Source: Minisyncoccota bacterium (lineage in GTDB: Bacteria; Patescibacteriota; Minisyncoccia; Phycocordibacterales; XYD1-FULL-46-19). Taken from it: a stretch of DNA of 64,000 nt. The translations under genes and the position numbers were made by a program. The stretch covers positions 68,587-132,586 of the forward strand of contig JBAYIK010000001.1 of NCBI GenBank assembly GCA_041665625.1, in the 5' to 3' direction. The notes beneath the pieces were generated by a model. The model saw only the letters and a list, made by a program, of their open reading frames with translations, had not been told where the DNA came from and ran no database searches. This document shows positions 11,062-59,072 of the stretch, piece after piece. Each line of letters begins with the position of its first letter. Position 1 is the first letter of the stretch.

Positions 11062-11469
11062 ATGTTAAAAGAATTTAAACAATTTCTCCTTCGTGGGAGT
11101 GTCGTCGATCTGGCCGTTGGTGTTGTCATTGGCGCTTCGTTTGGAACCATTGTCACTGCTCTGGTCTCCGACTTACTCACTCCACTCATCGCCGCGATTG
11201 TTCAGGCCCCAGATTTTAGTGGCCTATTCTTCACCTTGAATGGTAGCCAATTTATGTACGGTCACTTCATCAATGCCTTGATCTCCTTCCTCCTCGTGGC
11301 TAGCTCAGTCTTCTTCTTTGTCGTTAAACCAATGAATATTCTCATTGCTCGCTCGCACGAAGGCCGACCAACCGATTTTATCACCAAGAAATGTCCTGAT
11401 TGTCGCAGTGAGATTCCTAAGGATGCCAAGCGTTGCAAATTCTGTAGTCAGCCTCAAGTAATAGAATAA
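11062..11469 (+). CDS. mscL: large-conductance mechanosensitive channel MscL with C-terminal zinc-ribbon extension
   Basis: MLKEFKQFLLRGSVVDLAVGVVIGASFGTIVTALVSDLLTPLI is a classic MscL N-terminus/TM1; C-terminal CPDC...CKFC four-Cys ribbon. Confidence 0.85.
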   Translation: MLKEFKQFLLRGSVVDLAVGVVIGASFGTIVTALVSDLLTPLIAAIVQAPDFSGLFFTLNGSQFMYGHFINALISFLLVASSVFFFVVKPMNILIARSHEGRPTDFITKKCPDCRSEIPKDAKRCKFCSQPQVIE

Positions 11470-11494
11470 AAATTTCTAATAATTTTATAAAAGC

Positions 11495-11532
11495 AAAAGC
11501 GCGTGACCTCGGGGGAGGGCACGCGCTTGTTC
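11495..11532. terminator. bidirectional hairpin between convergent mscL and GC-rich gene
   Basis: gcgcgtg-acctcgggggaggg-cacgcgc stem-loop flanked by A/T runs. Confidence 0.5.
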
Positions 11533-11549
11533 GTCTGAGTTGAGTCTCT

Positions 11550-12314
11550 TCAGTCCTCGGTTTTCTGGGGGTAGGGCGTGAAGGCGTTCTTGCCCTTCTT
11601 GAAGCCGTTGGCCTTGCCCCAGAATTGGGCGCCGTAGACCCAGACCTGACCGTGGCAAAGGATGGTGACCCCGGAGTCCCCTTCACAAACCTCGTCGATG
11701 TCGAAGTCGTCACCGGGTGTGAAGGGGACCGAGAGGATGAAGTCTGTGGGAGTGCCTACTATCACGTAGGCCCAGACCTTCTTTTCGCAGGGCTCTAGCC
11801 ACTTCACCAAGGCGACAGCGGTGCCGGTGTTCTCGTCGGCATGGATCCATTCCCGGCTGATGAAGTCTACACTCGGGAAGGGGGCGTTCATAACCCCTTC
11901 GAGCGCCCAGAGTGTCTCCGTGATGGGGACATTCTTGACGACGAAGTCGTGGGTCCCGACGAAGCCGGTAATCCCTTCGTAGACCTCGGTCAGGGCTTCG
12001 TGGGTGTCGAAGATGAGGTGGCTGCCGAGTATCAATCGCGTGGTCGTCTCGTTCACAAAGACGGCGAGCTCGTAGCGGTCGGGGGCGCAGACTTCAGGGT
12101 TATCGGAGATCTTATCCCCTTTGATAACCCTGATCATCGAGATGAGGCCGACGCCATTCGTCGACCGCAATCCCTTGATGCCGCGCAGATCTCCGCGGAA
12201 GTCGCTCGGGGTCCAGATGGTCCGGCCTTTCTTGGCCTTCGCTAGGGCCACAGGGCTATTGCCGAAGACCGAAGGTTCGACAATGGCGTATCCAAGACGT
12301 TCTTGTTCGGGCAT
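11550..12314 (-). CDS. hypothetical protein (GC-rich islet; paralogous core shared with 12541..12936)
   Basis: ORF-track 11550..12419; start moved to Met of MPEQERLGY (ATG 12314) preceded by AAGGAGA RBS; ~57% GC; APDRYELAVFV segment matches FPRETYFEVAVFV of the neighbouring gene. Confidence 0.6.
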   Translation of the reverse strand: MPEQERLGYAIVEPSVFGNSPVALAKAKKGRTIWTPSDFRGDLRGIKGLRSTNGVGLISMIRVIKGDKISDNPEVCAPDRYELAVFVNETTTRLILGSHLIFDTHEALTEVYEGITGFVGTHDFVVKNVPITETLWALEGVMNAPFPSVDFISREWIHADENTGTAVALVKWLEPCEKKVWAYVIVGTPTDFILSVPFTPGDDFDIDEVCEGDSGVTILCHGQVWVYGAQFWGKANGFKKGKNAFTPYPQKTED

Positions 12315-12365
12315 AGTTACGGTTTCTCCTTTTTTTCCGCTGTTTTTGCCTGAGACAGAGTCTTT

Positions 12366-12420
12366 GAAACTCAACAATTCGAATAACAAAGAACTCTGAT
12401 TACCATTTCTTTTTAGCACG
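12366..12420 (-). promoter_or_regulatory. conserved promoter/leader module, copy A (upstream of 11550..12314)
   Basis: gaaactcaacaattcgaataacaaagaactctgattaccatttctttttagcac, ~75% identical to the copy at 12976-13035. Confidence 0.5.
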
Positions 12421-12439
12421 AAAATTGAGGCAAGTCAAA

Positions 12440-12469
12440 GGGCGCCGTCTCCCGGAGGAAAAGGCGCCC
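12440..12469 (-). terminator. hairpin downstream of 12541..12936
   Basis: gggcgcc-N16-ggcgccc perfect 7-bp GC stem. Confidence 0.35.
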
Positions 12470-12540
12470 AAACTAAAGTCTTGCCCTGCGTAGCCTTGGC
12501 GAAGCAGGGGAGTTCCGTCGGCTGGTCGTCAGCGTGACGA

Positions 12541-12936
12541 TCAGGCCGGGGTAGTCTCGTTCGCCGGCTCGGTGACCTTCACATCGCAGTTCTCGATGTA
12601 TATGGCCATCCTTCTGGCGATGAGATTCTCGGCCTCGAGGTTGGGGACGACGAAGGATGTCCCCTCGACCAGACACCACTCGGTTCCCGTAAGCACGAAG
12701 ACGGCGACCTCGAAGTAGGTCTCCCGGGGGAACTCCGGCTTGGGGGCCCCGGCGACCATGTTCGCGACGAACTGGAACGAGAGTCGGTCCTTGGTGCGAA
12801 GATGCTTCCGCCCGATGACCTTGGTCATGTTCTCGGTTGTCCAGGTTGTCGTCGTGGCACCAACTACCTTCGTGACCCCATCGAGGATGTCCTCAAGAGG
12901 CAGATCCGTTCGGATCACTCTAAGTTCTCTTGCCAT
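12541..12936 (-). CDS. hypothetical protein (GC-rich islet, ~131 aa)
   Basis: ORF-track 12541..12999; start moved to MARELRVIR (ATG 12936) after GAAGGAAG RBS; GC-rich; paralogous core with the adjacent gene. Confidence 0.55.
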   Translation of the reverse strand: MARELRVIRTDLPLEDILDGVTKVVGATTTTWTTENMTKVIGRKHLRTKDRLSFQFVANMVAGAPKPEFPRETYFEVAVFVLTGTEWCLVEGTSFVVPNLEAENLIARRMAIYIENCDVKVTEPANETTPA

Positions 12937-12975
12937 TTGTGTTCTTCTTCCTTCTCTGGTTGAGAGGAGTCCTCC

Positions 12976-13035
12976 GAAACTCAATATATAAAGTAACAAA
13001 GAACTCCCAATACCTTTTAATTATAGCATACAAGA
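12976..13035 (-). promoter_or_regulatory. conserved promoter/leader module, copy B (upstream of 12541..12936) with TATAAT -10 on minus strand
   Basis: gaaactcaatatataaagtaacaaagaactcccaataccttttaattatagcat; minus-strand reading contains tgcTATAATtaaaag. Confidence 0.5.
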
Positions 13036-13099
13036 CCTATTACGTCAAATTTAGACTAAGATATCGAAAACCTAATGTTCGACATCTTGTTTTCCCTTT

Positions 13100-13999
13100 G
13101 TGAAGTTTTTTGAGTTTGTTATAATAAGCGGAATGTTAGGGAACAAGAAGCTCCGCTTAGCTCTGCTCATTGCCTTGGTCATTGAACTCGGCTTTTTAGT
13201 TTTTCCCATTATCTCTACTCTTAATATTTCGGACAAAGGTTTTACTGCCGCAGTTTTGCCAGCCGTCTTAGATCAGTTGACCAACGAGAATCGCCAGGCC
13301 GAGAAGCTCTCAGCCCTAACTGTTAATCCGCTTCTAAACAAGGTGGCCGAGCTCAAGGCCCAAGACATGGCTGAGAAAGGTTATTTCTCTCATGTGAGCC
13401 CCGAGGGCAAGGAGCCTTGGTACTGGTTTCAAAAAGTGGGTTATCAATACGAGAATGCGGGCGAGAACTTGGCTATCGACTTCACCGAATCGGCCGATGT
13501 CACCAAGGCCTGGATGAATTCTCCAACTCACCGCGCCAATATTGTTAAAGGTGCTTATACTGAGGTGGGTACTGGTATTGCCAACGGCAGTTTCGAAGGT
13601 AAGCCAACAACTTTTGTCGCTCAAGTCTTTGGTCGTCCGGCGGACGCCGCTCCTGATAATATTTCTCGTCTCTACGCCTCTAATATTTCTAAGAATGCTA
13701 AAGGTAATAAAGTTCTTGGCGCCTCAACTGACCAGGTAGCTAGCGCTGATCTTAAGTCTAAAGAATCCCTACCGATTGTTATCTTGATATTCCTGGGTAT
13801 TACAGTCTTTGCTATTGTTCTCTTCAAGCTAATTATTTTTCTTAATAAAAAATTCTTCAAGGCCGTGACCGGTATTCTCATTTTCCTTGTTATCGCTCTA
13901 GGAGTATACTTAATCAATAATTATATCGTCGATAAAAAAATGTCCGAGCGGACATCCTTTGCCAGCTTCGAAGGTGAGAAATTCAATTCACCTCAGTAA
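13100..13999 (+). CDS. membrane-anchored CAP/SCP (PR-1-like, YkwD-type) domain protein
   Basis: N- and C-terminal hydrophobic helices; CAP motifs GENLAIDFTESADVTKAWMNSPTHRANIVKGAYTEVGTG. Confidence 0.7.
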   Translation: MKFFEFVIISGMLGNKKLRLALLIALVIELGFLVFPIISTLNISDKGFTAAVLPAVLDQLTNENRQAEKLSALTVNPLLNKVAELKAQDMAEKGYFSHVSPEGKEPWYWFQKVGYQYENAGENLAIDFTESADVTKAWMNSPTHRANIVKGAYTEVGTGIANGSFEGKPTTFVAQVFGRPADAAPDNISRLYASNISKNAKGNKVLGASTDQVASADLKSKESLPIVILIFLGITVFAIVLFKLIIFLNKKFFKAVTGILIFLVIALGVYLINNYIVDKKMSERTSFASFEGEKFNSPQ

Positions 14000-14170: not shown

Positions 14171-14262
14171 ACAGCTAGAGTTTAAGTTCACGCTATGGCA
14201 TCTGTTTGCTAGAGCGTTTTTATAATTTTCGTCATAACACACAAATAAGAAGGAGGTGTGAA

Positions 14263-15375
14263 GTGCTATCTCAGGACATCAACCGAATGGAAAAGGCCCT
14301 GCAGGCACACGAGGACTCTCTCTGGTACTTGCGCCAAATTTGGCAGACCCAGGGGAAGGACTCGAATTGCTTGCCCGAACCCGGAGCCTTGCGCGAAGCT
14401 CTGACGAATGGCGATTGGACAGCCGTGAATGTTATCCTCGCCATGCTGTGGACGTACTTCAAGGAGGAACTGGGGAAGGACACCGGTCTGGCCAGTATCC
14501 TTTTCTACACGGCGATGGATATTGCCGACTGGGTAAGAAACTCTCGGCGAGTTTACTCGCTCTCTCCCAGCTTGGCCGAGATGCTCCTGGCTACGGACCT
14601 TCCGAAGTTTAAGGCTCGCGACGTCAAGTTCGTCTCATTGGTTTTTGCCATTAAGTTGGAGGAGCCGGTGACAACTCCGAGCGGTAAGGTCCATGACTAT
14701 ATCGTCTTTCGCTACCTTCCGGCCGGCGAAGACGGTCTGACCGAGATTGTCATGCGGTCTTACTCGGGTGAGATGGATACTTATCAGAGGGTTTCGGCGG
14801 ACAAGAAGAAGCGGATAGAACGGTTGGCGAGGAATAACCCCGCGGGTTTTGTTCAACATTCGTCGCCTTGCATCGGCGAGTTGAACAAGGCTACCTACAC
14901 GGGCCTTGCCTTCACCTGCCCGGTCGACATCCCGCTTAACGAGATGATGACGGCCCAGGTCTTCGGCGAGGATACTCCGGTTGAAGACCGGGAAGTCCTC
15001 TTCCGCCTCTGTTTCGGCTTGAATCTCTATCTTCAGTCTTCCCGCAAGGATGATTACGAGGCAAAGAGAACGAACCGCGCCTGGCCGAACGAGCGGGGCA
15101 AGCCGGTTACGGACCAGACCGACATCTTCGACCTGAACGTCTCGACCGTCTTCCATCGCAAGTCTCACTCTCTCGAGGACGAGGAAACTTGTCGCTCTGG
15201 GGGTTACGAGATGCGCCCACACCTTCGCAACGGACACTGGCGTCGCCCTTGGGGTTATGGCAAGGACCCCGACGCTCCGGCAACGGTATGGATCAAGCCC
15301 CTGTGGGTCAGGAAAGATCTGATCGCGAAGGGTGTCCAGCCCATCGGAGCGCTACGCAAAGTGGCCAAGCGGTAG
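14263..15375 (+). CDS. hypothetical protein (GC-rich islet 2, ~370 aa)
   Basis: AGGAGG 14251-14256 then GTG 14263 in frame with ORF-track 14206..15375 (alternative ATG 14290); ~56% GC; no recognisable domain. Confidence 0.6.
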   Translation: MLSQDINRMEKALQAHEDSLWYLRQIWQTQGKDSNCLPEPGALREALTNGDWTAVNVILAMLWTYFKEELGKDTGLASILFYTAMDIADWVRNSRRVYSLSPSLAEMLLATDLPKFKARDVKFVSLVFAIKLEEPVTTPSGKVHDYIVFRYLPAGEDGLTEIVMRSYSGEMDTYQRVSADKKKRIERLARNNPAGFVQHSSPCIGELNKATYTGLAFTCPVDIPLNEMMTAQVFGEDTPVEDREVLFRLCFGLNLYLQSSRKDDYEAKRTNRAWPNERGKPVTDQTDIFDLNVSTVFHRKSHSLEDEETCRSGGYEMRPHLRNGHWRRPWGYGKDPDAPATVWIKPLWVRKDLIAKGVQPIGALRKVAKR

Positions 15376-15436: not shown

Positions 15437-15566
15437 TAAAATATTAATTATCTAGACACATTAAAGAAAATGTGTTAGTAATAGTTTCAGATTAAGTTCT
15501 TCCGTGGTGAACATAAGTAGCCATAGGAATTGTAAATAATTGCGGACAAAAGGAGATCCAAGCACT

Positions 15567-16286
15567 ATGCCTGATGGTTCAAGTCGTGATTGGGCTGAAG
15601 TCGTCAAACGCAACCCCAAGGGGGACTTCGAGTTCCAGGGAAATGGGAACACTGTCCTCCGCGGGCCGGTCAAGAGCATAACCCTCAGCGACGAAGGACT
15701 CGTCTCCATCGACCTCTGGTGGGCCGCCGAGATGCCCGTCATGGGTGAAGAAGGCTTCGGAATCTGGCATGCCTCGAACAAGCGGCACTTCGGGTTCCCC
15801 AACTTTGCCCTTCCCTATGTCATCGAGGACACCCCGGAGAAGGGCGAGCGCATTCGCTTCGGCATCTCCCTCATCTACCTCGAGCGCCTCGAGGGAGAGA
15901 ACACCTTGGACGTCAGGAAGGTCAATGGTCTCACCTGCGTGACACACGTTGTCGCTGCTCCCGATGGCCCTTGCCCCGCCGGCGGTGTCGCTCTCTCGGT
16001 GGTCTACCGGGATGTGAGCGGTCAGTCATGGGCCGATCCGACCCAAACAATTTCCCCCGAGGAGATTGCCGCAGCCGTTCAGCGCTGCGAGTTCCTGGCG
16101 TTGAAGACGCCGCTGTACCTGACCGAGACGCAGCACATCTTATTCCTGCCGAACGGCAAGTTCGTCTTGGCCGATCTCCGCGACGGGAAGCCCATCGAGG
16201 AGATTGAAGAGGAGGTCGAGTTCGCCGAAGCCCCCGCTCCGGCTCCGGCCGAAGAACCTCCGGCCCCCGAGCCCCCGCAAGAATAA
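15567..16286 (+). CDS. hypothetical protein with Pro/Ala/Glu-rich C-terminus (GC-rich islet 2)
   Basis: AAAGGAG 15550-15556 then ATG 15567 (ORF-track 15540); ~58% GC; C-terminus EEEVEFAEAPAPAPAEEPPAPEPPQE. Confidence 0.55.
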   Translation: MPDGSSRDWAEVVKRNPKGDFEFQGNGNTVLRGPVKSITLSDEGLVSIDLWWAAEMPVMGEEGFGIWHASNKRHFGFPNFALPYVIEDTPEKGERIRFGISLIYLERLEGENTLDVRKVNGLTCVTHVVAAPDGPCPAGGVALSVVYRDVSGQSWADPTQTISPEEIAAAVQRCEFLALKTPLYLTETQHILFLPNGKFVLADLRDGKPIEEIEEEVEFAEAPAPAPAEEPPAPEPPQE

Positions 16287-25196: not shown

Positions 25197-25724
25197 ATGA
25201 AGACTTTTAGCGTCCTCATTTTGGGGACAGAATGTCGAGATCTGGCATCAGGCCTGAAAGGGACCGTGACGCACTGGACCTGCGACATGGGAGGGAGAGT
25301 TGAATACTTCTTCCAGCCCCTCGGGTTGGATGAGGACGGACAACCGGTCAAGAAGCTTTATGTCTGCGACCAACGACTGGAGGTCAAGCCGAAGGACTTC
25401 GAAGCGGTAGAGGTGCCCTTCGAGATCCTTGGGACGATAGTCACCGACAAGGCCAGCGGGTTCACCGGTATGGCGATAAACTTCGTTCGCCATCTCAATG
25501 GGTGTTTCCATGTGGTGATCCAGCCACAGGGGATGCTCAAGGGGAAGAACGTCCCGGTTGAAGCGGCGGATTTTGACCTCAGAGGCTGCAAGGGGAAGAT
25601 GATAACGCAGATGTCGGAGGAAGAGAAGAAGGAAAGCACACAGAAGAATCCTTCCCCCACCGGCGATCGTTTCACTCGGCCCCAGCCCCCCTCGTCCCCG
25701 AAGCCCCCTTCTTGCCGGCGATAG
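25197..25724 (+). CDS. hypothetical protein (GC-rich islet 3)
   Basis: 175-aa ORF, ~57% GC, Pro/Ser-rich basic C-terminus; no motif. Confidence 0.5.
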   Translation: MKTFSVLILGTECRDLASGLKGTVTHWTCDMGGRVEYFFQPLGLDEDGQPVKKLYVCDQRLEVKPKDFEAVEVPFEILGTIVTDKASGFTGMAINFVRHLNGCFHVVIQPQGMLKGKNVPVEAADFDLRGCKGKMITQMSEEEKKESTQKNPSPTGDRFTRPQPPSSPKPPSCRR

Positions 25725-25735
25725 CCTGGCAAATC

Positions 25736-25778
25736 CCGCCCGAAGAGCCGCTCGCTCTTCGGGCGGTTTCTATTTTTG
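25736..25778 (+). terminator. strong rho-independent terminator
   Basis: ccgcccgaagagc-cgctc-gctcttcgggcgg perfect 13-bp stem followed by tttctattttt. Confidence 0.75.
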
Positions 25779-26111
25779 GATTAAATCTCTTAAATTTGTT
25801 ATAGTTTCCCCATGTCATTAAGTATCGGAATCCTGCGAGCGTCGCACGTCTGTTTGAGATCAAAGAAAGTACCTTCCTTCTTCCATTCGAGTTCGTAATA
25901 AAATTACCTAAGCCTAAATGGCAAACAATTAAGGGGTTTAAACGCCCTAAAAAAGAGGGGATTAAATAAACTTATAAAACATTGACATTTTTTGTAAATG
26001 TTATATAACATAAGAGGATTAAAACTTTGTCAAAGACTAGGAATAATAAGGAATTGAGGCTCAAAACAACAACCCAACTCTTAATTGAGTAGGGAGTGAG
26101 GAGACCGCTTC

Positions 26112-27329
26112 ATGAAGAACTTGTTGGTAGTGGTACTTGTGGTACTGTTCAGCCTGACCTTGGCCCTGTCGGCCCAGGCTGGCGCCTTCAGCCCAACACC
26201 CGGTGGACGTTCCACTGGGACCCAACTTGGAGGAGACCAGAGCGACGGTTCGCTTCTGGCTTCGGACCTTTGGGGGTATTTTGACCTCCACAAGGAAGAG
26301 AAACTCAAACTGAATTTTGGCACAGAAGTTATCGTGCCCAAGTTTACTGTCGAGGACGCCTTCGGACACAAGCAGGCATCGCGAGGAATTTACCATCCGC
26401 TACCGTGGGCAACCGCGGCGTGGCAGGTGAGCGATAAACTCGCCGTAGGCTTGAATGTCGACAACCCCTTCCGGCTCGGTTCGGCCTACAAGGCCAACCC
26501 CTACCAGTATGGGTTCGACACACAGAGCCTTGTCGGTCTCACAACCGCAAGCTTTCTCGCTGATATCAAACTCAGCGACAAACTGCACTTGTCGTTCGGA
26601 CCAGTCGTTGGGGTGGCACAGGTCATCTACAACGCAGCCTTCGACCTCGACCGTACGCCGCTCCCGATCTTTACTGAGACCAAAGCCATGGGCATTGGTT
26701 TTGGGGGAACAGCGAGCTTGTTCTGGTCACCTAACGACCGGACGAGGTTGGGCTTGCAGTATGTGAGCCCGATAGCCCCGGATATCTGGGGACACACCAA
26801 GATCCATATTTTGGGGTTCACGATTAAGGACCGCATCGAATTGCGGGATATCGTGTTCCCACAGACGGTCACGGTGGCCGGGAGTTACCAAATTACCGAC
26901 CGAATCCAACTTGACGGCGACGCTTACTGGGCGAATTACAACAACACCCCGCGCGCGTTCGAGCTCAAGTTCCGTAACTTGGGTATTGTTCACCCTCTCC
27001 CCACCGAATTTGTCGATGTCTTCGGTATCCACGCCGGAGCCAACTACAAAATCAATGAGGACTGGATGGTTCGCGGAGGAGTTGGCTGGCTCTCACAGGG
27101 TGTGCCTGACAAGAGGTTGGACACTCTGACTCAAGACGTCGCGGGCTGGGATCTGGCCGCAGGTCTCAGCTATAAGGGTCTCAACTTCGGTTGGACCCAT
27201 GCTTGGGGATCAAGCAACACGGGGAGTGGTCTTTCGTACAAGAAATACGGCATCACCATCGACACCTTCAGCGTCGGGGGAACCATCCAATGGCGCCCAC
27301 GGCCCAACAATTGCAACAACAGGAGTTAA
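26112..27329 (+). CDS. secreted beta-barrel protein resembling the FadL/OmpP1/TodX outer-membrane transporter family (tentative)
   Basis: Signal peptide (LVVVLVVLFSLTLALSAQA). Alternating-hydrophobic amphipathic beta-strands throughout (GLSYKGLNFGWTHAW, YGITIDTFSVGG, YQITDRIQLDGDAYWANY). Segment PWATAAWQVSDKLAVGLNVDNPFRLGSAY resembles FadL [20 protein letters not shown]. ~56% GC. Confidence 0.45.
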   Translation: MKNLLVVVLVVLFSLTLALSAQAGAFSPTPGGRSTGTQLGGDQSDGSLLASDLWGYFDLHKEEKLKLNFGTEVIVPKFTVEDAFGHKQASRGIYHPLPWATAAWQVSDKLAVGLNVDNPFRLGSAYKANPYQYGFDTQSLVGLTTASFLADIKLSDKLHLSFGPVVGVAQVIYNAAFDLDRTPLPIFTETKAMGIGFGGTASLFWSPNDRTRLGLQYVSPIAPDIWGHTKIHILGFTIKDRIELRDIVFPQTVTVAGSYQITDRIQLDGDAYWANYNNTPRAFELKFRNLGIVHPLPTEFVDVFGIHAGANYKINEDWMVRGGVGWLSQGVPDKRLDTLTQDVAGWDLAAGLSYKGLNFGWTHAWGSSNTGSGLSYKKYGITIDTFSVGGTIQWRPRPNNCNNRS

Positions 27330-27335
27330 GTCGCC

Positions 27336-27587
27336 ATGAAGAAGCTCTATTTTTGGGGAATTGAATTCCCCCTACAGACCCTGCTCACAGCCATCTTGTC
27401 ACTCGTCTTCGGGCTGGGCTTCTCGATCTGGATTGCTGTGATGCATCTGGTCGAAATCCGCTCGTTTTGGACCGGTTGGCGTGATGAGTTGACCTTCTGG
27501 ACAGGAGGAGTCGTGACGTTCTTTCTTGGAGCAATTCTTTGCCCTGTCTATGGCCTTCAAGAGGTCTGGGCTGAGGCTCACACCTAG
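27336..27587 (+). CDS. small membrane protein (2 TM)
   Basis: 83-aa ORF 6 nt after the beta-barrel gene, two hydrophobic helices. Confidence 0.4.
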   Translation: MKKLYFWGIEFPLQTLLTAILSLVFGLGFSIWIAVMHLVEIRSFWTGWRDELTFWTGGVVTFFLGAILCPVYGLQEVWAEAHT

Positions 27588-27813
27588 TCCACACGCAATG
27601 ACCGCACAATCGGCCACTTTCCACAGGGAGAGGGGCCGATTTCTAATTGACCTAAAATTTTAAGCATCAATCTTCTAACCGTTGACAGGTAAGAGATTAT
27701 GAGCTATTCTATTGACAGATTCGTAAGAATGATGGATTATCTGCCATCTTCAAGCGATTGATCTTATTATATGGTTACGAGGTTAAAGAATACCCCTAAA
27801 AAGGAGAAGTCCC

Positions 27814-28950
27814 ATGACGACACGAAGCTTTGCGTTTATTGCTCACTACGTGGAAGACTGGAACTGGCTCCTCAGGTGGTGCCTCTTCAGTCGACTCCAT
27901 ACCCACCCCGCCGAGCATTTCTACTGGAGCTGGTTGTGGCCGATTTATACGGTCGCAGCGCTCTTGGACATGATCGGCAAGAAATCGTTCGACGTCGTCG
28001 ATGATTTCGCCTTTGGTAAAAAGTTGCGGGGTCGGACAGTCCTTCTACGCAACTTCGCTTGGCAATTTTTCATCCCACAGTATCGGGATCGGATTCGGGA
28101 ACGGATTCTGAAAACGGTATTAGAAACCCAGAAATTCGTCGAGGTGATAGGGCTTGGAGCCCTCATCAAAGACGAGAGTCTGACTCGTGGCGGGGAGTGG
28201 ATTGTCGAGAAACTTGGTAGTCAGCTCAAGGTCCCAATTGTCCACGGTGACACCCTTACGGCTGCCACGGTCTTTGAACAGGTCATGGCTCTAAGAGAAA
28301 AAAGAGGGCTTGAAGCCGATGATCCCGTGATGGTTACAGGTTCGACGAGTAAGATAGGACGAGCCATTGTCCTGCTTCTTGCGGAGAAGGGAATTAAGGT
28401 GAAGATGTTCACTCTCAGTAACGATCGCTTCCTCGCGATAAAGACTGAGGCTGGCGCCAAGAGCGAGAACATTGAGTGGGCCTCGTCCCTCTCGGATGGC
28501 AAGTGTTGCCCGATCTGGGTGACAGGGAAATCAATTCCCCGTGGCCGAGACCTTTTGGACCTCATCCCTTACGAGGCTGATGTTCTAAACTTCGCGGTAC
28601 CGAATCCGCTGAACGTGTCTTGGAAAAAGACGCGGTCTGATCTGGTTTTCCATGAGGGAGGACTCTTGGCCTACAAGCCTGATACAACGAGTCTGCGCTT
28701 CACCATGAGACTTCGTCCTGGTCTCACTTACGCCTGCCACGCTGGAACAATGGTCCATGCCGCTATGGGCTGGACTCATCACGAAGTGGGCCAGGTCGAT
28801 ATCCCCCAGATTGAAGTGACCTGGAAGGCAGCCCTAGAACTGGGATTTTCCCTTCCTCCACTTGGCGAGCGCGAGCTAGTTGGGAACAAAATAGAAGGAG
28901 AGGTCAAACAGCTTAAGTCTGCCAAGAACTTCTTGTCCTGGTTTTTCTAA
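27814..28950 (+). CDS. NAD(P)-binding oxidoreductase resembling the cyanobacterial long-chain acyl-ACP reductase (AAR) family (tentative)
   Basis: AAGGAGA RBS then ATG 27814. SFAFIAH near the N-terminus (AAR begins MFGLIGH). HGDTLTAATV, Rossmann motif VMVTGSTSKIGRAIV (AAR: VAVVGATGDIGSAV) and MVHAAMGWTH (AAR: MLLEFEGWH) align by eye. Confidence 0.5.
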   Translation: MTTRSFAFIAHYVEDWNWLLRWCLFSRLHTHPAEHFYWSWLWPIYTVAALLDMIGKKSFDVVDDFAFGKKLRGRTVLLRNFAWQFFIPQYRDRIRERILKTVLETQKFVEVIGLGALIKDESLTRGGEWIVEKLGSQLKVPIVHGDTLTAATVFEQVMALREKRGLEADDPVMVTGSTSKIGRAIVLLLAEKGIKVKMFTLSNDRFLAIKTEAGAKSENIEWASSLSDGKCCPIWVTGKSIPRGRDLLDLIPYEADVLNFAVPNPLNVSWKKTRSDLVFHEGGLLAYKPDTTSLRFTMRLRPGLTYACHAGTMVHAAMGWTHHEVGQVDIPQIEVTWKAALELGFSLPPLGERELVGNKIEGEVKQLKSAKNFLSWFF

Positions 28951-41192: not shown

Positions 41193-41304
41193 TTATCTTC
41201 TAATAATAGACTTTTTGTGGCCGAAATTAAAGGGCTAAAAGTCTTCTTTATTTAAACTTAAATCTGTGGTAGTATTTAAAGACAATTTAATATTAGAAGT
41301 AGCC

Positions 41305-41450
41305 TAAACCAGTGAGTAATCGCTGGCATGGTGAATAAGCCCAGTCAAACGTAAAGAACCCAACATGTGGGGCCGTTTGACTGGCTGTATCGGGAAACCG
41401 ATGCAGAGGGCGCAAGCTCTCACTCACGTGTTGGGCTTTTTGGTTTCTAA
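41305..41450 (+). ncRNA. candidate structured RNA (unknown family) with GNRA hairpin and long-range stem ending in a T-tract
   Basis: GC-rich 145-nt island in an AT-rich intergenic region. ccagtcaaacg/cgtttgactgg 11-bp stem, atcgg-GAAA-ccgat tetraloop hairpin, cccaacatgtg pairing with cacgtgttggg followed by ctttttggttt. Confidence 0.3.
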
Positions 41451-41479: not shown

Positions 41480-41992
41480 ATGGGCTTTTTCTCAAACATC
41501 TCTTCTCAGGGGAAATTTAATAAAAAATTGACGACGGTTTCGACACATCGGAATAAAATTTTGATGTCAGAAATTAAGTCAGTTCACCCATTGTTTACAA
41601 TCATTCCGATGTACCTGGGATCTTTTTATCAAGGAGTATTAACAGATGACAAAGCTAGTGTATTTTTTGAGATATTAGCCGAAGCCACCGAACAACAAAT
41701 TGATTTTGTTAATAGACTCCTCACTGTATGGTTTTTTTGGTCCGCCGACCGTCTTATGGATATAAAAGTTTTAAAAGAGAGAAGTGTCGTTGTCGGTTTT
41801 AGTAAGGTTTGGTCTCTGTCGGATGTTGAATTAAAATCTCTGGTTTCTTCTCTGGATGCATCTGGTCAAGGTAAAGATATTTTATATTTGTGGAAGAAGA
41901 TAGAGGAAGTCCTCAATCATGGAGATATTAATCCGCTATATGTTTTTCCTCATTTGAGAAATGCAATGACATCAGTCTTGCAAGGTAGGTAA
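41480..41992 (+). CDS. hypothetical protein
   Basis: 170-aa ORF, no motif recognised. Confidence 0.45.
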   Translation: MGFFSNISSQGKFNKKLTTVSTHRNKILMSEIKSVHPLFTIIPMYLGSFYQGVLTDDKASVFFEILAEATEQQIDFVNRLLTVWFFWSADRLMDIKVLKERSVVVGFSKVWSLSDVELKSLVSSLDASGQGKDILYLWKKIEEVLNHGDINPLYVFPHLRNAMTSVLQGR

Positions 41993-46078: not shown

Positions 46079-48640
46079 ATGACAAACTCTAAAGAAGCAT
46101 CTGCTCGAATTAAGATAAACAAACTGCTTGAAGCCTCTGGCTGGCGTTTTGGAGACGACAAAAAAGGAAAAGCTAATATACAACTTGAGCCAGGAGTTAA
46201 GTATTCCGAGCTTGGCGACGACTTTGAAAACGAAACTCACGGTTTTATTGATTTTCTTTTGCTTGACAAAGATGGCCGGGCGCTTGTGGTCCTAGAGGCA
46301 AAAAAGGAATCGATTGACCCTCTTTCTGCCAAAGAGCAAGCTAGAAACTACGCTCGTAATGTTGGAGCGCGGTTCGTCATTCTTTCTAATGGTAACATCC
46401 ATTATTTCTGGGATACTAAACATGGAAACCCTGATGCCATTTCTCGTTTTCCGACTCAAGACTCAATAACTCAATATGAAAAATACACTCCAAACCCTGA
46501 GGAATTAGCTAATACTTTGGTTGACGAGAACTACATTGCCTTAACTCAAATGCCAGGTTTAGTAAATGACCCTGCTTTCCTAAATGAGGCAACGAGAGTT
46601 GAGTTCTTAAGAAATAATAATTTAAAACAACTTCGACCTTACCAACTGAAGTCAATTAAGGCTCTTCAGGAGTCCGCCATGTCTGGTAATCAACGTTTTC
46701 TTTTTGAGATGGCTACGGGTACGGGAAAGACACTCATTTCGGCGGCTGTTATTAAATTATTCCTAAAATCTGGCAATGCCCGCAGAGTTCTTTTTCTTGT
46801 TGATCGATTAGAACTTGAGGGCCAAGCCTATAAAGCATTTAAAGCTTATCTCGGCCATGATTTTGCTACGGTTATTTATAAAGATAACCGCGATTCCTGG
46901 CAAAATGCCAGTGTCGTTGTTTCCACTATTCAAACTTTTCTCGCTGGCGATCGTTATAAAAAGGAATTCTCTCCTACCGATTTTGAGTTAGTTATCTCTG
47001 ACGAAGCCCATCGTTCTATTGGTGGTAATAGTCGAGCGGTCTTTGAATATTTTGTTGGTTATAAATTAGGTTTAACTGCCACACCTAAAAACTATATCAA
47101 GGGCGTTGACCCTGAGGGGGCGGATGTTCAGAGAGAATATGAGCGTCGATTACTTCTTGATACTTACAAAACTTTTGGCTGTGAGCCGGGCAATCCGACG
47201 TTTACCTATGATCTTCTTCAGGGTTCAAAAGACGGATTTCTTATTCAGCCGACCTTGGTTGATGCTCGAACAGAAATTACAACCGAGCTTTTGTCAGAAA
47301 AAGGCTATGCGGTTCATTCCACAACCGAGGAAGGAGAGAATGTCGATCAAGTCTTTAATGAGCGACACTATGAGCGAAAGTTCTTCAACGAAGAAACTAA
47401 TATTGCTATGTGTAAGGCCTTTATTGATAATGGCCTTTTTGACCCAGTAGCACAAAAACAGGGTGTTCAGCTTTTTGGTAAATCAATTGTCTTCTGTGTC
47501 TCACAAAAACACGCTTCGAGAGTGACCAATATTCTTAACAAATTGGCGTTTGAGAGATGGCCAGATCAATACGGTGAATCAGATTTTGCTATGCAAGTGA
47601 CCTCGCAGGTATCCAGTGCTCAACAGATGACAGTTAATTTCTCTAATAATCGTCTCGGTGGTCAAGTTAAGAAACCAGAAGGCTATGATTCTAGTAAGAC
47701 ACGCATTGCGGTAACTGTGGGAATGATGACGACAGGTTATGATTGCCAAGATTTGCTTAACATCGCTTTAATGCGCCCCGTTTTTAGTCCTGCCGACTTC
47801 GTCCAGATTAAGGGACGCGGGACCAGAAAATGGTTATTTGAGTATAAAGATTATGTTGACAAGGAAACAACTCAGATAGCTAAAGAAAGATTTAAATTCT
47901 TTGATTTCTTTGCCACTTGCGAATACTTCGAAGAAGGATTTCCTTATGACGAGAAGATAAAGCTCCCACAAATTAAAAAAGTTGTTGAATCTGAAACTTC
48001 GGGGGATAAAGCTTCGTCTCAGGGAGAATTTGTTGATGAAAAAGGTAACAAGATCTTTAAAGGACCAATTGATTTGGCTACCTCGGACGAGATTGCCTCT
48101 GTCTCCGAGACTGTTATCGGGGAAGAAGGTATGAGAATTGACCGTGAAGGCTTCAAAAGAGCCGTCGAAGAAGATATTCTCGGCAACGAGAAGCTTAAGA
48201 ATATGTGGGAGAACGGCGATACAGAGGAAGCGGAAGACTTTGCTAAAAAAGAGATTTTTGATAAGCCTAAATATTTCTTGAACCTCGATAAGATTCGTAG
48301 GATTTTTGGCGTTGATCGTCGGGTGACTGTTAAGGAATTTTTGCAGGTAGCCTTTGGTGATAAAGAAACATTTGAGATGAAGGACGATCTCTTGGAGTCC
48401 GAATGGCAGAAGTTCGTCGATATTTATGATGTTGATCAACCTCATTATCAACCCGCGAAGAATTTCTTTAAAGCCTATATCTCAGATGAAGAAGTCCGCG
48501 ACATTGTTAAGCGCAATCAACCTGCCGAATTCTATCATTGCCCGTCCTTCGACTTCGAAGATTATCAAAAACTAAACGGATATAGAGTGATCGTCCCACA
48601 ATATGTCCGTGACTATGCCTATCAATTAACAAACTTATAA
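46079..48640 (+). CDS. hsdR: Type I restriction enzyme R subunit (HsdR), compact
   Basis: N-terminal PD-(D/E)xK (DFLLLDKDGRALVVLEAKK), SF2 helicase motifs I (MATGTGKT) and II (VISDEAHRS), canonical KINKLLEASGW N-terminus. Confidence 0.85.
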   Translation: MTNSKEASARIKINKLLEASGWRFGDDKKGKANIQLEPGVKYSELGDDFENETHGFIDFLLLDKDGRALVVLEAKKESIDPLSAKEQARNYARNVGARFVILSNGNIHYFWDTKHGNPDAISRFPTQDSITQYEKYTPNPEELANTLVDENYIALTQMPGLVNDPAFLNEATRVEFLRNNNLKQLRPYQLKSIKALQESAMSGNQRFLFEMATGTGKTLISAAVIKLFLKSGNARRVLFLVDRLELEGQAYKAFKAYLGHDFATVIYKDNRDSWQNASVVVSTIQTFLAGDRYKKEFSPTDFELVISDEAHRSIGGNSRAVFEYFVGYKLGLTATPKNYIKGVDPEGADVQREYERRLLLDTYKTFGCEPGNPTFTYDLLQGSKDGFLIQPTLVDARTEITTELLSEKGYAVHSTTEEGENVDQVFNERHYERKFFNEETNIAMCKAFIDNGLFDPVAQKQGVQLFGKSIVFCVSQKHASRVTNILNKLAFERWPDQYGESDFAMQVTSQVSSAQQMTVNFSNNRLGGQVKKPEGYDSSKTRIAVTVGMMTTGYDCQDLLNIALMRPVFSPADFVQIKGRGTRKWLFEYKDYVDKETTQIAKERFKFFDFFATCEYFEEGFPYDEKIKLPQIKKVVESETSGDKASSQGEFVDEKGNKIFKGPIDLATSDEIASVSETVIGEEGMRIDREGFKRAVEEDILGNEKLKNMWENGDTEEAEDFAKKEIFDKPKYFLNLDKIRRIFGVDRRVTVKEFLQVAFGDKETFEMKDDLLESEWQKFVDIYDVDQPHYQPAKNFFKAYISDEEVRDIVKRNQPAEFYHCPSFDFEDYQKLNGYRVIVPQYVRDYAYQLTNL

Positions 48641-48643
48641 TAA

Positions 48644-51193
48644 ATGAACGCTGACACCAAAAGACATATCGATTCGGCTCGCCAAGTGTTAGTTGGGGTG
48701 GTTCCAAATCCGACTTCGCAGATAGACCAGATCACGAACGCGTTGATTTATAAGTTTATGGATGATATGGATCAGTCCGCGATTAAGGCTGGCGGTGAGC
48801 CTTCGTTCTTTGTTGGTAGTCTTGAGCGTTATGCTTGGACTCGCTTGATGGACGCTCGCATTGGCAATCAAGAGCGAATGAATCTTTACTCCGAAGCTCT
48901 ACTTAAATTCTCTGAAGCAAAACAACTGCCAGAACTTTTTAGAGGAATTTTTAAATCTGCCTTCTTACCTTATCGCTCGCCTGAAACTCTAGGTTTATTT
49001 CTTAAAGAGATTGATTATTTCGACTATTCTCATCCAGAAGAACTTGGTAATGCTTATGAATATCTGCTGTCGATAATGTCCTCTCAAGGTGACGCGGGGC
49101 AATTCCGTACCCCCCGTCACATTATCGACTTCATTGTTGACGTGGTTAACCCTACCAAAGACGATAAGGTTCTCGATCCTGCTTGTGGGACCGGTGGCTT
49201 CTTGGTGAGCTCCTATAAACATATTCTTGAACAGCATGATGGTAAAGATGACCCAGACAAGAAGGAAAAATCACTTACTCCCGACCAGCGCCGAGCTTTG
49301 GCAAATAACTTTGAAGGCTATGACATCGACCCGGGGATGGTCCGTATTGCTCAAGTTAATATGTATCTTCACCAATTTAAGAATCCAAAAATCTTTCAAT
49401 ATGATTCTCTCTCAAGTGATGAGCGTTGGAACGATAAGTTTAGCGTAATCTTGGCTAACCCACCCTTCATGTCTCCTAAAGGTGGGATTAAACCGCACAG
49501 TAAGTTTAGTATTCAATCGAGCCGAAGTGAGGTGTTGTTTGTTGATTATATAATGAATCATCTTCAGCCCAAAGGCCGAGCTGGTATTATTGTCCCAGAA
49601 GGTGTCATCTTTCAATCGGGGACTGCTTATAAACAACTCCGCAAGAATCTTGTCGAAGATGGTTTATTTGCTGTTGCCTCTTTGCCGTCAGGAGTTTTTA
49701 ATCCTTATGCCGGTGTCAAAACAAGTATCCTCTTTTTCGATAATGAGATCTCAAAGAGGACAAATGATATTTTGTTTATAAAAATTAAGAACGATGGCTT
49801 TGACTTGGGAGCCCAGAGACGACCAATTGATAAAAATGATTTGCCTGGGGCAATTAGTTTCATCAACCAATACAAAGAATATCTTGGTAATGATAAAGCT
49901 GCTCTGGCTAAACTATGGGCACATACAGGGGAAGACAAGTTCTTTTCTGTTGAGAAGGCAAAAATTTCTGAGGACGGTGACTATAATCTTTCTGGTGATC
50001 GTTACCGAGTCGCGACTGACTATTCTAACTCTAAGTGGCCGATGATAGGATTGGGAAAATTAGAAGAAGAAGGGAAAATTGAATTTTTAAGAGGTCAAGG
50101 ACTATCAAAGAGTGATTTAATTGAAGAAGGTAAAAGTAAGTGTATCCACTATGGCGAAATTTATACCTTATATGATCCCATTATTAAGAATGTCATAAGT
50201 AGGACTGATTTTGAAGGTAAGGTTACGTCATTAAAAGGTGATGTTCTTGTCCCCGCAACGACAACTGCTGATGCGATGGGGATTGCCGTGGCGAGATCAT
50301 TAAATGAGCAGGGGGTGATAATTGGGGGTGACATAAATATTATCAGAACGAGAAATAAGTTTATGTTGGCCGATTATCTAGCTTTATTAATTAGTAACCC
50401 TCCATTAAAAATAGAACTTTCTAGGTCTGCTAAGGGTGCAAACATACTCCATTTGTCAAACAGTGATTTAAAAAGGCTTCTGATTCCTCTCCCTCCGCTT
50501 GAAATCCAAGAGCAAATCGTCTCAGAGTTGGACGGCTACTCAAGTATAATTTCCGGCGCTAAACAAATCTCTCAAAACTGGAAACCTAAAATCGAGATTG
50601 ACCCTGAGTGGGAGGAGGTTAAGATAGAGGAAATCTCTGATTTAATTACAAAAGGCACAACGCCGACCACTAACGGCGGTAAATTCACGGAAACAGGAAT
50701 CAATTTTATAAAAGTTGAAAGTTTGTCTGAAACTGGTGAAATTGACCTTAAAAAAACATCTTTTATTTCTGGTGAGTGCCATGAGTCACTAAAGCGAAGT
50801 CAATTAAGAGAGAATGACATATTGTTTTCCATCGCTGGTACGAAAATGGGATTATCGGCTATCGTTTCTAAAAATATTTTACCTGCAAACACAAATCAAG
50901 CCTTGGCAATTATAAGATTAAAAAATAATACTGACCCGCAATATGTACTAAATTACTTGAGGTCTATTGCTTTAATATCGCTAATTGAAAACATTAAGGT
51001 CGGAGTTGCTCAGTTTAATCTCTCATTAAAACAAGTAGGTGAACTAGAAATACCTTTCCCTCCTCTCGAAACCCAGAAACAAATCGTAGAAAAAATCGAA
51101 GCTGAACGCATCTTGGTAGACTCTGCCAAAAAATTGATTGGGATTTATGAGAAAAAGACTAGGGAGGTTCTAGCTAAGCTTTGGGAGAAATAG
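48644..51193 (+). CDS. hsdMS: fused Type I methyltransferase-specificity subunit (HsdM-HsdS in one polypeptide)
   Basis: N-terminal half: N6-adenine MTase motifs DPACGTGGFL (I) and LANPPF (IV). C-terminal ~400 aa: two target-recognition domains each followed by a conserved LPPLEIQEQIV / FPPLETQKQIV helix. Confidence 0.8.
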   Translation: MNADTKRHIDSARQVLVGVVPNPTSQIDQITNALIYKFMDDMDQSAIKAGGEPSFFVGSLERYAWTRLMDARIGNQERMNLYSEALLKFSEAKQLPELFRGIFKSAFLPYRSPETLGLFLKEIDYFDYSHPEELGNAYEYLLSIMSSQGDAGQFRTPRHIIDFIVDVVNPTKDDKVLDPACGTGGFLVSSYKHILEQHDGKDDPDKKEKSLTPDQRRALANNFEGYDIDPGMVRIAQVNMYLHQFKNPKIFQYDSLSSDERWNDKFSVILANPPFMSPKGGIKPHSKFSIQSSRSEVLFVDYIMNHLQPKGRAGIIVPEGVIFQSGTAYKQLRKNLVEDGLFAVASLPSGVFNPYAGVKTSILFFDNEISKRTNDILFIKIKNDGFDLGAQRRPIDKNDLPGAISFINQYKEYLGNDKAALAKLWAHTGEDKFFSVEKAKISEDGDYNLSGDRYRVATDYSNSKWPMIGLGKLEEEGKIEFLRGQGLSKSDLIEEGKSKCIHYGEIYTLYDPIIKNVISRTDFEGKVTSLKGDVLVPATTTADAMGIAVARSLNEQGVIIGGDINIIRTRNKFMLADYLALLISNPPLKIELSRSAKGANILHLSNSDLKRLLIPLPPLEIQEQIVSELDGYSSIISGAKQISQNWKPKIEIDPEWEEVKIEEISDLITKGTTPTTNGGKFTETGINFIKVESLSETGEIDLKKTSFISGECHESLKRSQLRENDILFSIAGTKMGLSAIVSKNILPANTNQALAIIRLKNNTDPQYVLNYLRSIALISLIENIKVGVAQFNLSLKQVGELEIPFPPLETQKQIVEKIEAERILVDSAKKLIGIYEKKTREVLAKLWEK

Positions 51194-58159: not shown

Positions 58160-58244
58160 ACCACGCCTGGCACCTAGCATAACCTAGAGGTTGTTGCCAG
58201 GTGCCAAGTAACTTATTAGGTAAATTAACTAACAAATAAAAAAT

Positions 58245-58838
58245 ATGAATGATTATAGTTTAGAGGTCAAGGAAGAAGAGCTTCTTAAAGAAAAAAGAAC
58301 TCTATGGGATACTCTTGTTAAAAGAGGAGAAGAAATTGGTGTTGAAGATGGGGCAAGAGAGATTGTTGTGGCTCTTAATGCCAATAACCTCCCAACGGCC
58401 TGGTCCTGTGGTGGACATGTTGATACCTCAATCGAGCAAACAGATGATTATTGGCAGAGAAACCCCTGGGTCTATTTTGAGTTATGTGAGCACCATACTT
58501 ACCCCTCAGAAGATTCCGAAGAGGGTCGGGCCTCGGCTGCTCTTTTTGAAGTCAGGAAGGGGATGACAACAGAGGTTCCTGAGCTTATTGAAGAATTTTA
58601 CAAAACAAGAACTCCACAAAATGGAGTTCGGTTAATGTTTTCTAAGGTGGGCGGATTGGATTACTTATATCGACTTGACGCGGTAAGTGATGGGCCAGAC
58701 ATTATAACGGAAGATTGTGACCTTTCTTGTCTGAATCAGAAACTTTTTTACCAACAAGAAGAGATGAGGGCTTTTGCAAAGTTCTTAGAAGATCGCTACT
58801 TATCCCCCTCTCGACCAATTAGTCATGAAAGGGGTTAA
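58245..58838 (+). CDS. acidic hypothetical protein
   Basis: 197-aa ORF, no motif. Confidence 0.45.
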   Translation: MNDYSLEVKEEELLKEKRTLWDTLVKRGEEIGVEDGAREIVVALNANNLPTAWSCGGHVDTSIEQTDDYWQRNPWVYFELCEHHTYPSEDSEEGRASAALFEVRKGMTTEVPELIEEFYKTRTPQNGVRLMFSKVGGLDYLYRLDAVSDGPDIITEDCDLSCLNQKLFYQQEEMRAFAKFLEDRYLSPSRPISHERG

Positions 58839-59072
58839 ATTAGTGGTTAAATTAACTTGATGTTAAAATGAAGAAACTACACGAAGACGATGACAAAATA
58901 GTTAATATTGTGTCCAGCGAAGGGCAACGAGGGTCTTTGTGTAGTAACAAGATGTCTTCTCGTTGCCCTTCTTTGGATTATGAAGATATTGGCGCATCTG
59001 GCTCAGTTAGCGACGCTTACGATATTCTTTTTAATAAAACGGTCGAAGTTATAAATAATAGGAAAATATTAT

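Follow-up and report, generated by a model that had tools for sequence, protein, structure and literature searches.

Stem-loops in the 5′ untranslated region (5′ UTR) of mRNAs are known in several forms. Those in the ompA 5′ UTR of Escherichia coli and the aprE leader of Bacillus subtilis are 5′-terminal mRNA stabilisers, structure-only elements that are not known to show family-wide sequence conservation. Protein-binding leader operators, such as the ribosomal-protein leaders and the phage MS2 coat-protein and T4 RegA operators, have sequence-specific unpaired nucleotides, and the classical ones overlap or adjoin the Shine-Dalgarno sequence or the start codon. RNase III processing hairpins, which occur in the 5′ leaders of phage T7 early mRNAs and in the rnc and pnp leaders, are normally less conserved in sequence. 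Here we describe a hairpin common to the leaders of two neighbouring minus-strand genes, A and B, in a 64,000-nt stretch of DNA from a Minisyncoccota bacterium (the window, to which all coordinates refer), and compare it with its counterparts at related loci from public sequence collections (L001, L002, L003, L004 and L071).

Gene A (11550-12314, minus strand) encodes a fast-evolving, two-domain orphan protein of 254 amino acids (aa), and gene B (12541-12936, minus strand) a protein of 131 aa that corresponds to the N-terminal domain of A standing alone. Both sizes, given in an earlier note on this DNA, were confirmed by the open reading frame (ORF) list and by the NCBI annotation of the same metagenome-assembled genome, in which the starts are identical (MFA6475853.1 and MFA6475854.1). 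The annotation uses the name 'Candidatus Paceibacterota bacterium', which leads to the phylum Minisyncoccota within the Candidate Phyla Radiation (CPR). The earlier note read the two genes as paralogues in tandem, with a separate promoter and leader module in front of each, and that central reading is supported by the alignment of B, by the conservation of the leaders and by their common hairpin.

Mechanical repeat finding recovered the conserved upstream element, previously put at ~55 nt and ~75% identity, as a 53-nt repeat of 75% identity (12366-12418 and 12976-13028), and the string GAGTTCTTTGTTA occurred exactly twice in the 64 kb. An nhmmer profile of the leader detected the two copies in the window (E 1e-30), in agreement with a covariance model. 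According to RNAfold and the covariance model, the B leader forms a hairpin (12965-13008, minus strand) with a 12-bp outer stem, a 2x2 UU/UU internal loop and a 4-bp inner stem (z -3.1, matched in stability by none of 200 shuffles; covariance score 77.5 bits). The A leader hairpin (12356-12398, minus strand; RNAfold centroid -17.7 kcal/mol, z -2.25; 75.6 bits) is built like that of B, except for a bulged U and an inner stem of 6 bp. In single-sequence folds the sense strands of B and A reached -24 and -21 kcal/mol, respectively, as compared with -11.6 and -14.3 kcal/mol for the antisense strands. Each hairpin is ~43 nt long and begins ~5-6 nt after the predicted transcription start.

Five distinct hairpin copies from three metagenomic genomes were then compared, namely those of A and B in the window, those of A and B in L001, and that of L002, an 897-bp contig whose A protein is 33% identical. 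All five copies adopted one two-tier architecture, and their 57-nt hairpin segments had energies between -14 and -22 kcal/mol. The outer stem has 10-12 bp and is followed by the 2x2 internal loop (UU/UU, but UC/UU in L002), the inner stem has 4-6 bp, and the terminal loop, in which a 3-nt deletion in L002 is located, varies in length. In the outer stem, (G/A)GAGUUCUUUG is paired with a variable, purine-rich 3′ arm, and the inner stem ends in an invariant UUGAGU. Standard pairs filled 76 of the 77 cells of the structural alignment. Two pairs had changed on both sides (G-C to A-U; G-U / C-G / U-G). Another six had changed on one side, where the alternatives were invariably A and G facing U, or C and U facing G. 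The partners of A and C were invariant. The consensus fold by RNAalifold had an energy of -20.5 kcal/mol versus -1.85 ± 1.6 kcal/mol for column shuffles, none of 500 being as stable, and -4.4 kcal/mol for the reverse-complement alignment. Because the fold relies on G-U pairs, it works on the mRNA strand only. These results show that a conserved, strand-specific RNA hairpin is common to both leaders.

The hairpins are the best-conserved sequence at the locus. They are 91-95% identical between the window and L001, as against 37-48% for the non-coding stretches beside the leaders, and synonymous sites differ at ~50%. Except at the single U/C position, no copy departs from the blocks GAGUUCUUUGU(U/C)A and UUGAGUUUC, even though the proteins are down to 20-33% identity. 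Four or five of the five copies agree throughout the UU/UU internal loop, the 5′ arm and UUGAGUUUC. Strong purifying selection on the leader was shown by these comparisons, and the constraint is far stronger than that on the genes downstream. An element that works by structure only would not need a frozen 5′ arm facing a wobbling 3′ arm. With 72% identity to each other, the A and B leaders show no homogenisation. Similarity between A and B upstream of the transcription start extends little beyond the consensus -35 and extended -10 boxes, so that the case for duplication of element and ORF as a unit, as claimed earlier, is an inference from the transcribed leader and the N-terminal domain.

Each gene is preceded by a putative sigma-70-type promoter, as judged by consensus match. 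Promoter B (13020-13048, minus strand), found by a consensus scan, reads TTGACG, 17 nt, TG-n-TATAAT; it has 11 of 12 consensus matches plus the extended TG, both of its boxes are conserved in L001, and it is divergent from the promoter of the neighbouring CAP-domain gene. Promoter A (12410-12438, minus strand), read from the sequence as TTGACT, 17 nt, TG-c-TAAAAA, is identical in L001 except in the spacer and was not listed by the scan because position 6 of its -10 box is A. The shared pattern is TTGAC(G/T), 17 nt, TG-n-TA(T/A)AA(T/A). The -10-like box that had been proposed for both elements was thus recovered as an extended -10 in each, but in A the box itself (TAAAAA) is weaker. The predicted transcription starts, 7 nt after the -10 box, are G13014/13 for B and G12404/03 for A, and a conserved GGUA tail and then the hairpin follow. 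A Shine-Dalgarno-like AAGGAAG was read 10 nt before the ATG of B (12947-12953, minus strand) and an AGGAG 11 nt before that of A (12326-12330, minus strand). Neither the Shine-Dalgarno sequence nor the start codon is part of the hairpin, and both are unpaired in the minimum-free-energy and suboptimal folds.

When set beside the known systems, the hairpin resembles the ompA and aprE stabilisers in being stable, in lying a few nucleotides from the predicted 5′ end and in leaving a free ribosome-binding site downstream, and it differs from them in that one arm and the internal loop are invariant. With the protein-binding operators it has in common a short, conserved 5′-UTR hairpin with invariant, putative recognition nucleotides, some of them unpaired, attached to genes that would be co-regulated. 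Unlike the classical operators, it stops 20-40 nt short of the Shine-Dalgarno sequence and does not overlap the ribosome-binding site; Rfam contains no leader family that matches it. As in the RNase III hairpins, the predicted fold contains a helix of ~18-20 bp with a symmetric internal loop in a 5′ leader; its sequence is better conserved than is normal for them.

Several other candidates for the leader were rejected. A riboswitch is incompatible with a single unbranched hairpin in all five copies, which holds no multi-helix aptamer; nor is there an expression platform, as no U tract follows the hairpin and the Shine-Dalgarno sequence and AUG are free. Each of the five leaders contains a short open frame of 10-11 codons (GUA-nnn-nGA-GUU-CUU-UGU-...-UGA; in the window at 12365-12405 and 12975-13015, minus strand; also in L001 and L002), which stays open after the 3-nt deletion in L002. 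Its start codon is unconserved and lies at or before the predicted transcription start, and its third positions are invariant, indicating that this upstream ORF is probably incidental. A T-loop-like UUCGAAU in the inner stem of A is absent from L001. The Joint Genome Institute (JGI) gene calls place the protein starts within the leader, at a TTG of the conserved hairpin block TTGAGTTTC (~12372 for A and ~12984 for B, minus strand), giving proteins of 274 and 147 aa that are 20 and 16 codons longer than the ATG-start versions. Because these N-terminal extensions are out of frame in L001 and L002, the JGI starts were regarded as over-called.

The leader appears to be very rare. Neither nhmmer nor the covariance model detected further copies in the window, L001, L003 or L004, so that on the question of copies elsewhere, which the earlier note had raised, the outcome is none beyond the two in this 64-kb part of a 293-kb contig. 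A first scan of a metagenome contig collection with the leader pattern returned 0 loci and a relaxed pattern 61, all lacking the 3′ arm; genome contigs gave 5 loci, also lacking the 3′ arm, and viral contigs 0. The 61 and 5 loci are about the number expected by chance. Among these loci, nhmmer found two marginal matches (E 0.004 and 0.008, versus at most 3e-6 for true copies), and the covariance model gave at most 21 bits on the subset to which it was applied, versus 63-80 bits for true copies. Searches of phages and plasmids by blastn returned noise only. A permissive Rfam 15 scan of 11450-13100 (E up to 10) had no match over either hairpin, and the gathering-threshold scan of the whole window found only two tRNAs and a LOOT RNA (RF03000). 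The latter is full-length (41301-41421, plus strand; 87.6 bits versus a gathering cut-off of 46.4) and lies ~60 nt upstream of an ORF at 41480-41992. A dispersed repeat of the repetitive extragenic palindrome (REP) or miniature inverted-repeat transposable element (MITE) kind was rejected, since the 64 kb contain only two copies, each of which precedes a gene of the family. The hairpin is probably a new, very narrowly distributed 5′-UTR RNA motif, attached to a tiny orphan family in Paceibacterota.

The paralogous core that the earlier note saw in A and B was weak by BLASTP (E 0.07) and firm by profile methods. Comparison of the A-family profile with the B pair by hhalign gave 97.4% probability (E 1.3e-11) over A residues 28-127, and hmmsearch of the A family against B gave E 3e-15. 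A coding-core repeat of 22 nt, 86% identical, was also listed by the repeat finder (12054-12075 and 12694-12715). An alignment that spans the whole of B and the first ~130 residues of the A family, with the invariant motifs T-x-W-T and E-x-A-x-F, identifies B as a stand-alone homologue of the N-terminal domain of A. An internal repeat within A, between its N- and C-terminal domains, was rejected (hhalign probability 0.3%). Five A-type proteins were found in an exhaustive search of 1.8 billion representative proteins, and an indexed protein search added one further B-type protein; the family amounts to seven clusters among ~15 billion proteins.

The absence of an assignable family, also reported in the earlier note, was borne out by protein, RNA, defence and phage libraries. 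Pfam, PHROGs, NCBIfam, PADLOC and PDB sequence searches with all family members gave no match (PADLOC, 0 for 7 proteins; PHROGs, nothing below E 0.4), and the family was found neither in INPHARED phage genomes by tblastn nor in IMG/VR. A trypsin-like serine protease (PF00089) was rejected for the A family because it scored 12.7 bits against a cut-off of 20.6 in one of the five members only, and the Ser position of the putative GDSG motif is F, D, E or D in the homologues. The AlphaFold2 model of B (predicted local distance difference test, pLDDT, 85; predicted template-modelling score, pTM, 0.80) shows an antiparallel beta-sheet followed by a C-terminal helix, and the model of A had a pLDDT of 70.5. 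The top Foldseek matches were Whirly-type proteins, which bind single-stranded nucleic acid, but they were insignificant (E 0.06, template-modelling score 0.15-0.2), and there was no significant superposition on a Whirly or PC4-like single-strand-binding fold. Both proteins are acidic (isoelectric point ~5; net charge of the N-terminal domain -1 to -4), and no signal peptide or membrane segment was visible by eye. For soluble, acidic, beta-rich and fast-evolving proteins, an accessory or conflict-related role suits better than housekeeping.

We tentatively favour a reading in which the hairpin is a cis-acting mRNA element recognised by a trans-acting factor that co-regulates both paralogues. 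Each gene would be transcribed from its own sigma-70-type promoter into an mRNA with the hairpin near its predicted 5′ end. The factor, either an RNA-binding protein or a double-strand-specific RNase, would recognise the shared hairpin by sequence and would set the stability or translation of both mRNAs jointly. In proposing this, we infer the transcription start, the function at the RNA level, the existence of the factor and the direction of regulation. A number of points weigh against it. The transcription starts were predicted from promoter position, the structural alignment was made by hand, the z-scores of single sequences are modest (-0.5 to -3.1) and covariation has low statistical power because the five copies come from three lineages only. 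In addition, the covariance model detected no leader copy in L004, the most distant homologue, no candidate trans-acting factor was identified, and direct occlusion of the ribosome is not evident with the hairpin so far upstream of the Shine-Dalgarno sequence.

A passive 5′ stabiliser, by which the hairpin would merely protect both mRNAs from 5′-end-dependent decay and need no specific factor, is possible but on balance unlikely. The position of a stable hairpin near the predicted 5′ end of both genes, the free Shine-Dalgarno sequence and the lack of a terminator or alternative fold all suit such a role, although the five to six unpaired 5′ nucleotides are at the upper limit for 5′-end protection. 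Both arms of a stabiliser should drift, yet in the five copies neither the 5′ arm nor the internal loop nor the inner 3′ arm has done so. Another rival is a DNA-level operator, in which the conserved blocks, both with GAGTT, would be roadblock sites for a transcription factor just past the start. Two invariant blocks at ~+10 and ~+33, immediately after the promoter, would be well placed for a repressor. We consider this improbable because the spacing of the blocks differs by 3 bp in L002, because the palindrome would have up to five mismatches and a ~28-bp spacer, and because the variation in the 3′ arm obeys RNA wobble rules, the strong fold being confined to the sense strand both in the single sequence of B and in the alignment. 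Very improbable, too, is a Shine-Dalgarno switch, in which alternative pairing of the pyrimidine-rich 5′-arm UUCUUU with the purine-rich Shine-Dalgarno region, and of the 3′-arm ACUC with the second GAGU, would give on and off conformers. Service of one segment in two helices would account for the frozen 5′ arm. Both alternative pairings could be drawn by reading in all three leader types, but any run resembling an anti-Shine-Dalgarno sequence pairs with any Shine-Dalgarno sequence. The alternative, of 4 bp plus 6 bp, is much less stable than the full hairpin (-14 to -22 kcal/mol) and was never among the RNAfold suboptimal structures.

Autoregulation, in which the domain common to A and B binds the shared hairpin, each protein feeds back on both mRNAs, and domain and operator were duplicated together, is about as improbable as a DNA operator. 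The leader and the N-terminal domain are exactly what A and B share; the leader is kept wherever A is at least 33% identical and goes undetected in L004, and the best structural matches, albeit insignificant, were of the Whirly type. On the other hand, the acidity of the proteins argues against RNA binding without excluding it, no nucleic-acid-binding family or significant fold match was found, and the surface of A evolves very fast while the RNA is frozen. We assign a similarly low probability to a self-contained module in which an unseen beta-sheet-plus-helix domain recognises its own 5′-UTR hairpin and domain and operator were co-duplicated to give two cross-regulated genes; the same low joint estimate covers, as a part of this proposal, a high GC content at third codon positions (GC3) kept by selection rather than left in unameliorated foreign DNA. 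Least probable of all is a locus without function, where the similarity would simply persist from a duplication or gene conversion and the GC-rich genes would be foreign DNA in decay. Orphans of atypical composition, with third positions that fit amelioration from a donor of very high GC3 and a ratio of nonsynonymous to synonymous substitution rates (dN/dS) of 0.45 for A, would be in keeping with decay. However, the ORFs are intact in independent assemblies and in relatives, dN/dS is below 1, B was modelled confidently, and the leader is better conserved than housekeeping synonymous sites, survives in L002 and has not been homogenised between A and B.

The placement of the GC-rich islet between mscL and a CAP-domain gene, inside an interval flanked by two tRNA-Ala genes, was confirmed as the earlier note gave it. 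The locus resembles tRNA-flanked islands and integron cassettes in its atypical GC content, its orphan ORFs, the nearby tRNA genes and the repeated imperfect hairpin, one per ORF. However, the tRNA-Ala genes differ in anticodon (GGC and TGC), indicating that they are ordinary genes rather than duplicates of an att site, and no integrase or flanking direct repeat was seen among the ORFs and repeats examined between them. The sole recombinase found is a serine recombinase 46 kb from the locus. In L001 (JGI 3300034015), a population that recurs in other samples and has 82-85% nucleotide identity to the window across syntenic DNA, the order CAP gene, B, A, mscL is preserved with the same high GC, and the order is also preserved in L071. 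Neighbouring genes differ between the window and L001 by a dN of 0.02-0.10 and a dS of 0.8-1.3 (dN/dS 0.02-0.10). B is 78% identical to its L001 orthologue (dN 0.15, dN/dS 0.21), and A has 41% protein identity with a dN of 0.48, so that the A protein has evolved 5-25 times faster than its neighbours. Because the synonymous divergence of A and B resembles that of the neighbouring genes, the islet has been vertically inherited since the window and L001 split. It is not a recent insertion, as the same arrangement sits in a relative at a dS of ~0.8-1.3. A mobile genomic island was rejected on the shared gene order, the neighbour-like divergence and the lack of direct repeats, the GC anomaly being the only island feature found. 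An integron cassette with attC was likewise rejected, since no integrase domain was seen near the locus and the hairpin is placed upstream of each ORF, after a promoter, with a fold that needs G-U pairs and, by reading, neither the RYYYAAC nor the GTTRRRY core.

The two genes have GC contents of 59.1% and 59.3%, and GC3 is 0.788 in both, versus 0.33-0.48 in most window genes, with ordinary values at the first and second positions. This combination indicates a strong coding signal and a clear compositional anomaly, in line with the GC-rich coding islet described before. However, ~8 of 56 window ORFs have a GC3 of at least 0.6, so the islet is not unique in composition. The third-position counts are explicable by amelioration from an ancestor with a GC3 of ~0.95; no homologue of A or B was found in any GC-rich organism in the search of 1.8 billion representative proteins. 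GC3 is also raised in A-family homologues (0.67 in L002, 0.67 in L003 and 0.50 in L004). The background could be checked for L004, whose contig has 36% GC overall, L002 and L003 being gene-sized contigs. High GC3 may therefore characterise the A family and not the islet alone.

Of the two hairpin terminators said to bracket the genes, both fold strongly, and the one behind B qualifies only in part. Terminator A (11487-11528, minus strand; inverted repeat and fold) has 14-bp arms followed by UUUUGCUUUU; its hairpin (11497-11528; -24.1 kcal/mol, z -5.5) has a good U tract and is conserved in L001. The terminator-like hairpin of B (12440-12469, minus strand; identified by its fold) pairs GGGCGCC...GGCGCCC (z -4.15) and is also conserved in L001. 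With a tail of just UUU, which overlaps promoter A at its -35 box, this hairpin may let some transcription continue into A. The 3′ UTR of B (12470-12540, minus strand) has ~30 extra nt relative to L001 that form an additional GC-rich hairpin, CCCUGC...GCAGGG.

Other GC-rich genes of the window had neither the leader nor the protein family of A and B. Directly after tRNA-Ala(TGC) lies a GC-rich ORF of 389 aa (14206-15375, plus strand; GC3 0.70) with no Pfam match. It is absent from L001, where other genes surround this tRNA gene, making this a variable spot. A second GC-rich orphan of 248 aa (15540-16286, plus strand; GC3 0.74), unrelated to A and B and without their leader, has a counterpart in L001 (5219-5983; 83% aa identity, dN/dS 0.19). 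A GC-rich cluster at 25197-28950 includes a FadL/TodX-like outer-membrane transporter (26112-27329) and a CER1-like/short-chain dehydrogenase/reductase (SDR) protein (27814-28950). CPR bacteria are expected to lack an outer membrane, which makes these genes odd here and suggests horizontal acquisition. The regions 46079-51193 and 56288-60767 carry a type I restriction-modification system, consisting of an R subunit and a fused M/S subunit, and, separately, a Prim-Pol/AAA_25 gene adjoining a large serine recombinase, in what looks like an integrated element.

CPR bacteria, or Patescibacteria, have tiny genomes, few regulators and many orphan genes, and to our knowledge almost nothing is known about their post-transcriptional control. 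With five copies in three metagenomic populations, the practical reach of the motif is limited. A short leader common to two paralogues is nevertheless a concrete and cheap target for the study of RNA regulation in CPR bacteria, and gene A stands out by its rate of evolution as a candidate for a conflict or accessory role in an episymbiotic lineage. If the self-contained module, improbable as we hold it to be, were true, it would be new to biology, with a C-terminal domain and surface of A that diversify quickly. Phages, or the host cell of the episymbiont, could then be the opponents in an arms race behind this diversification.

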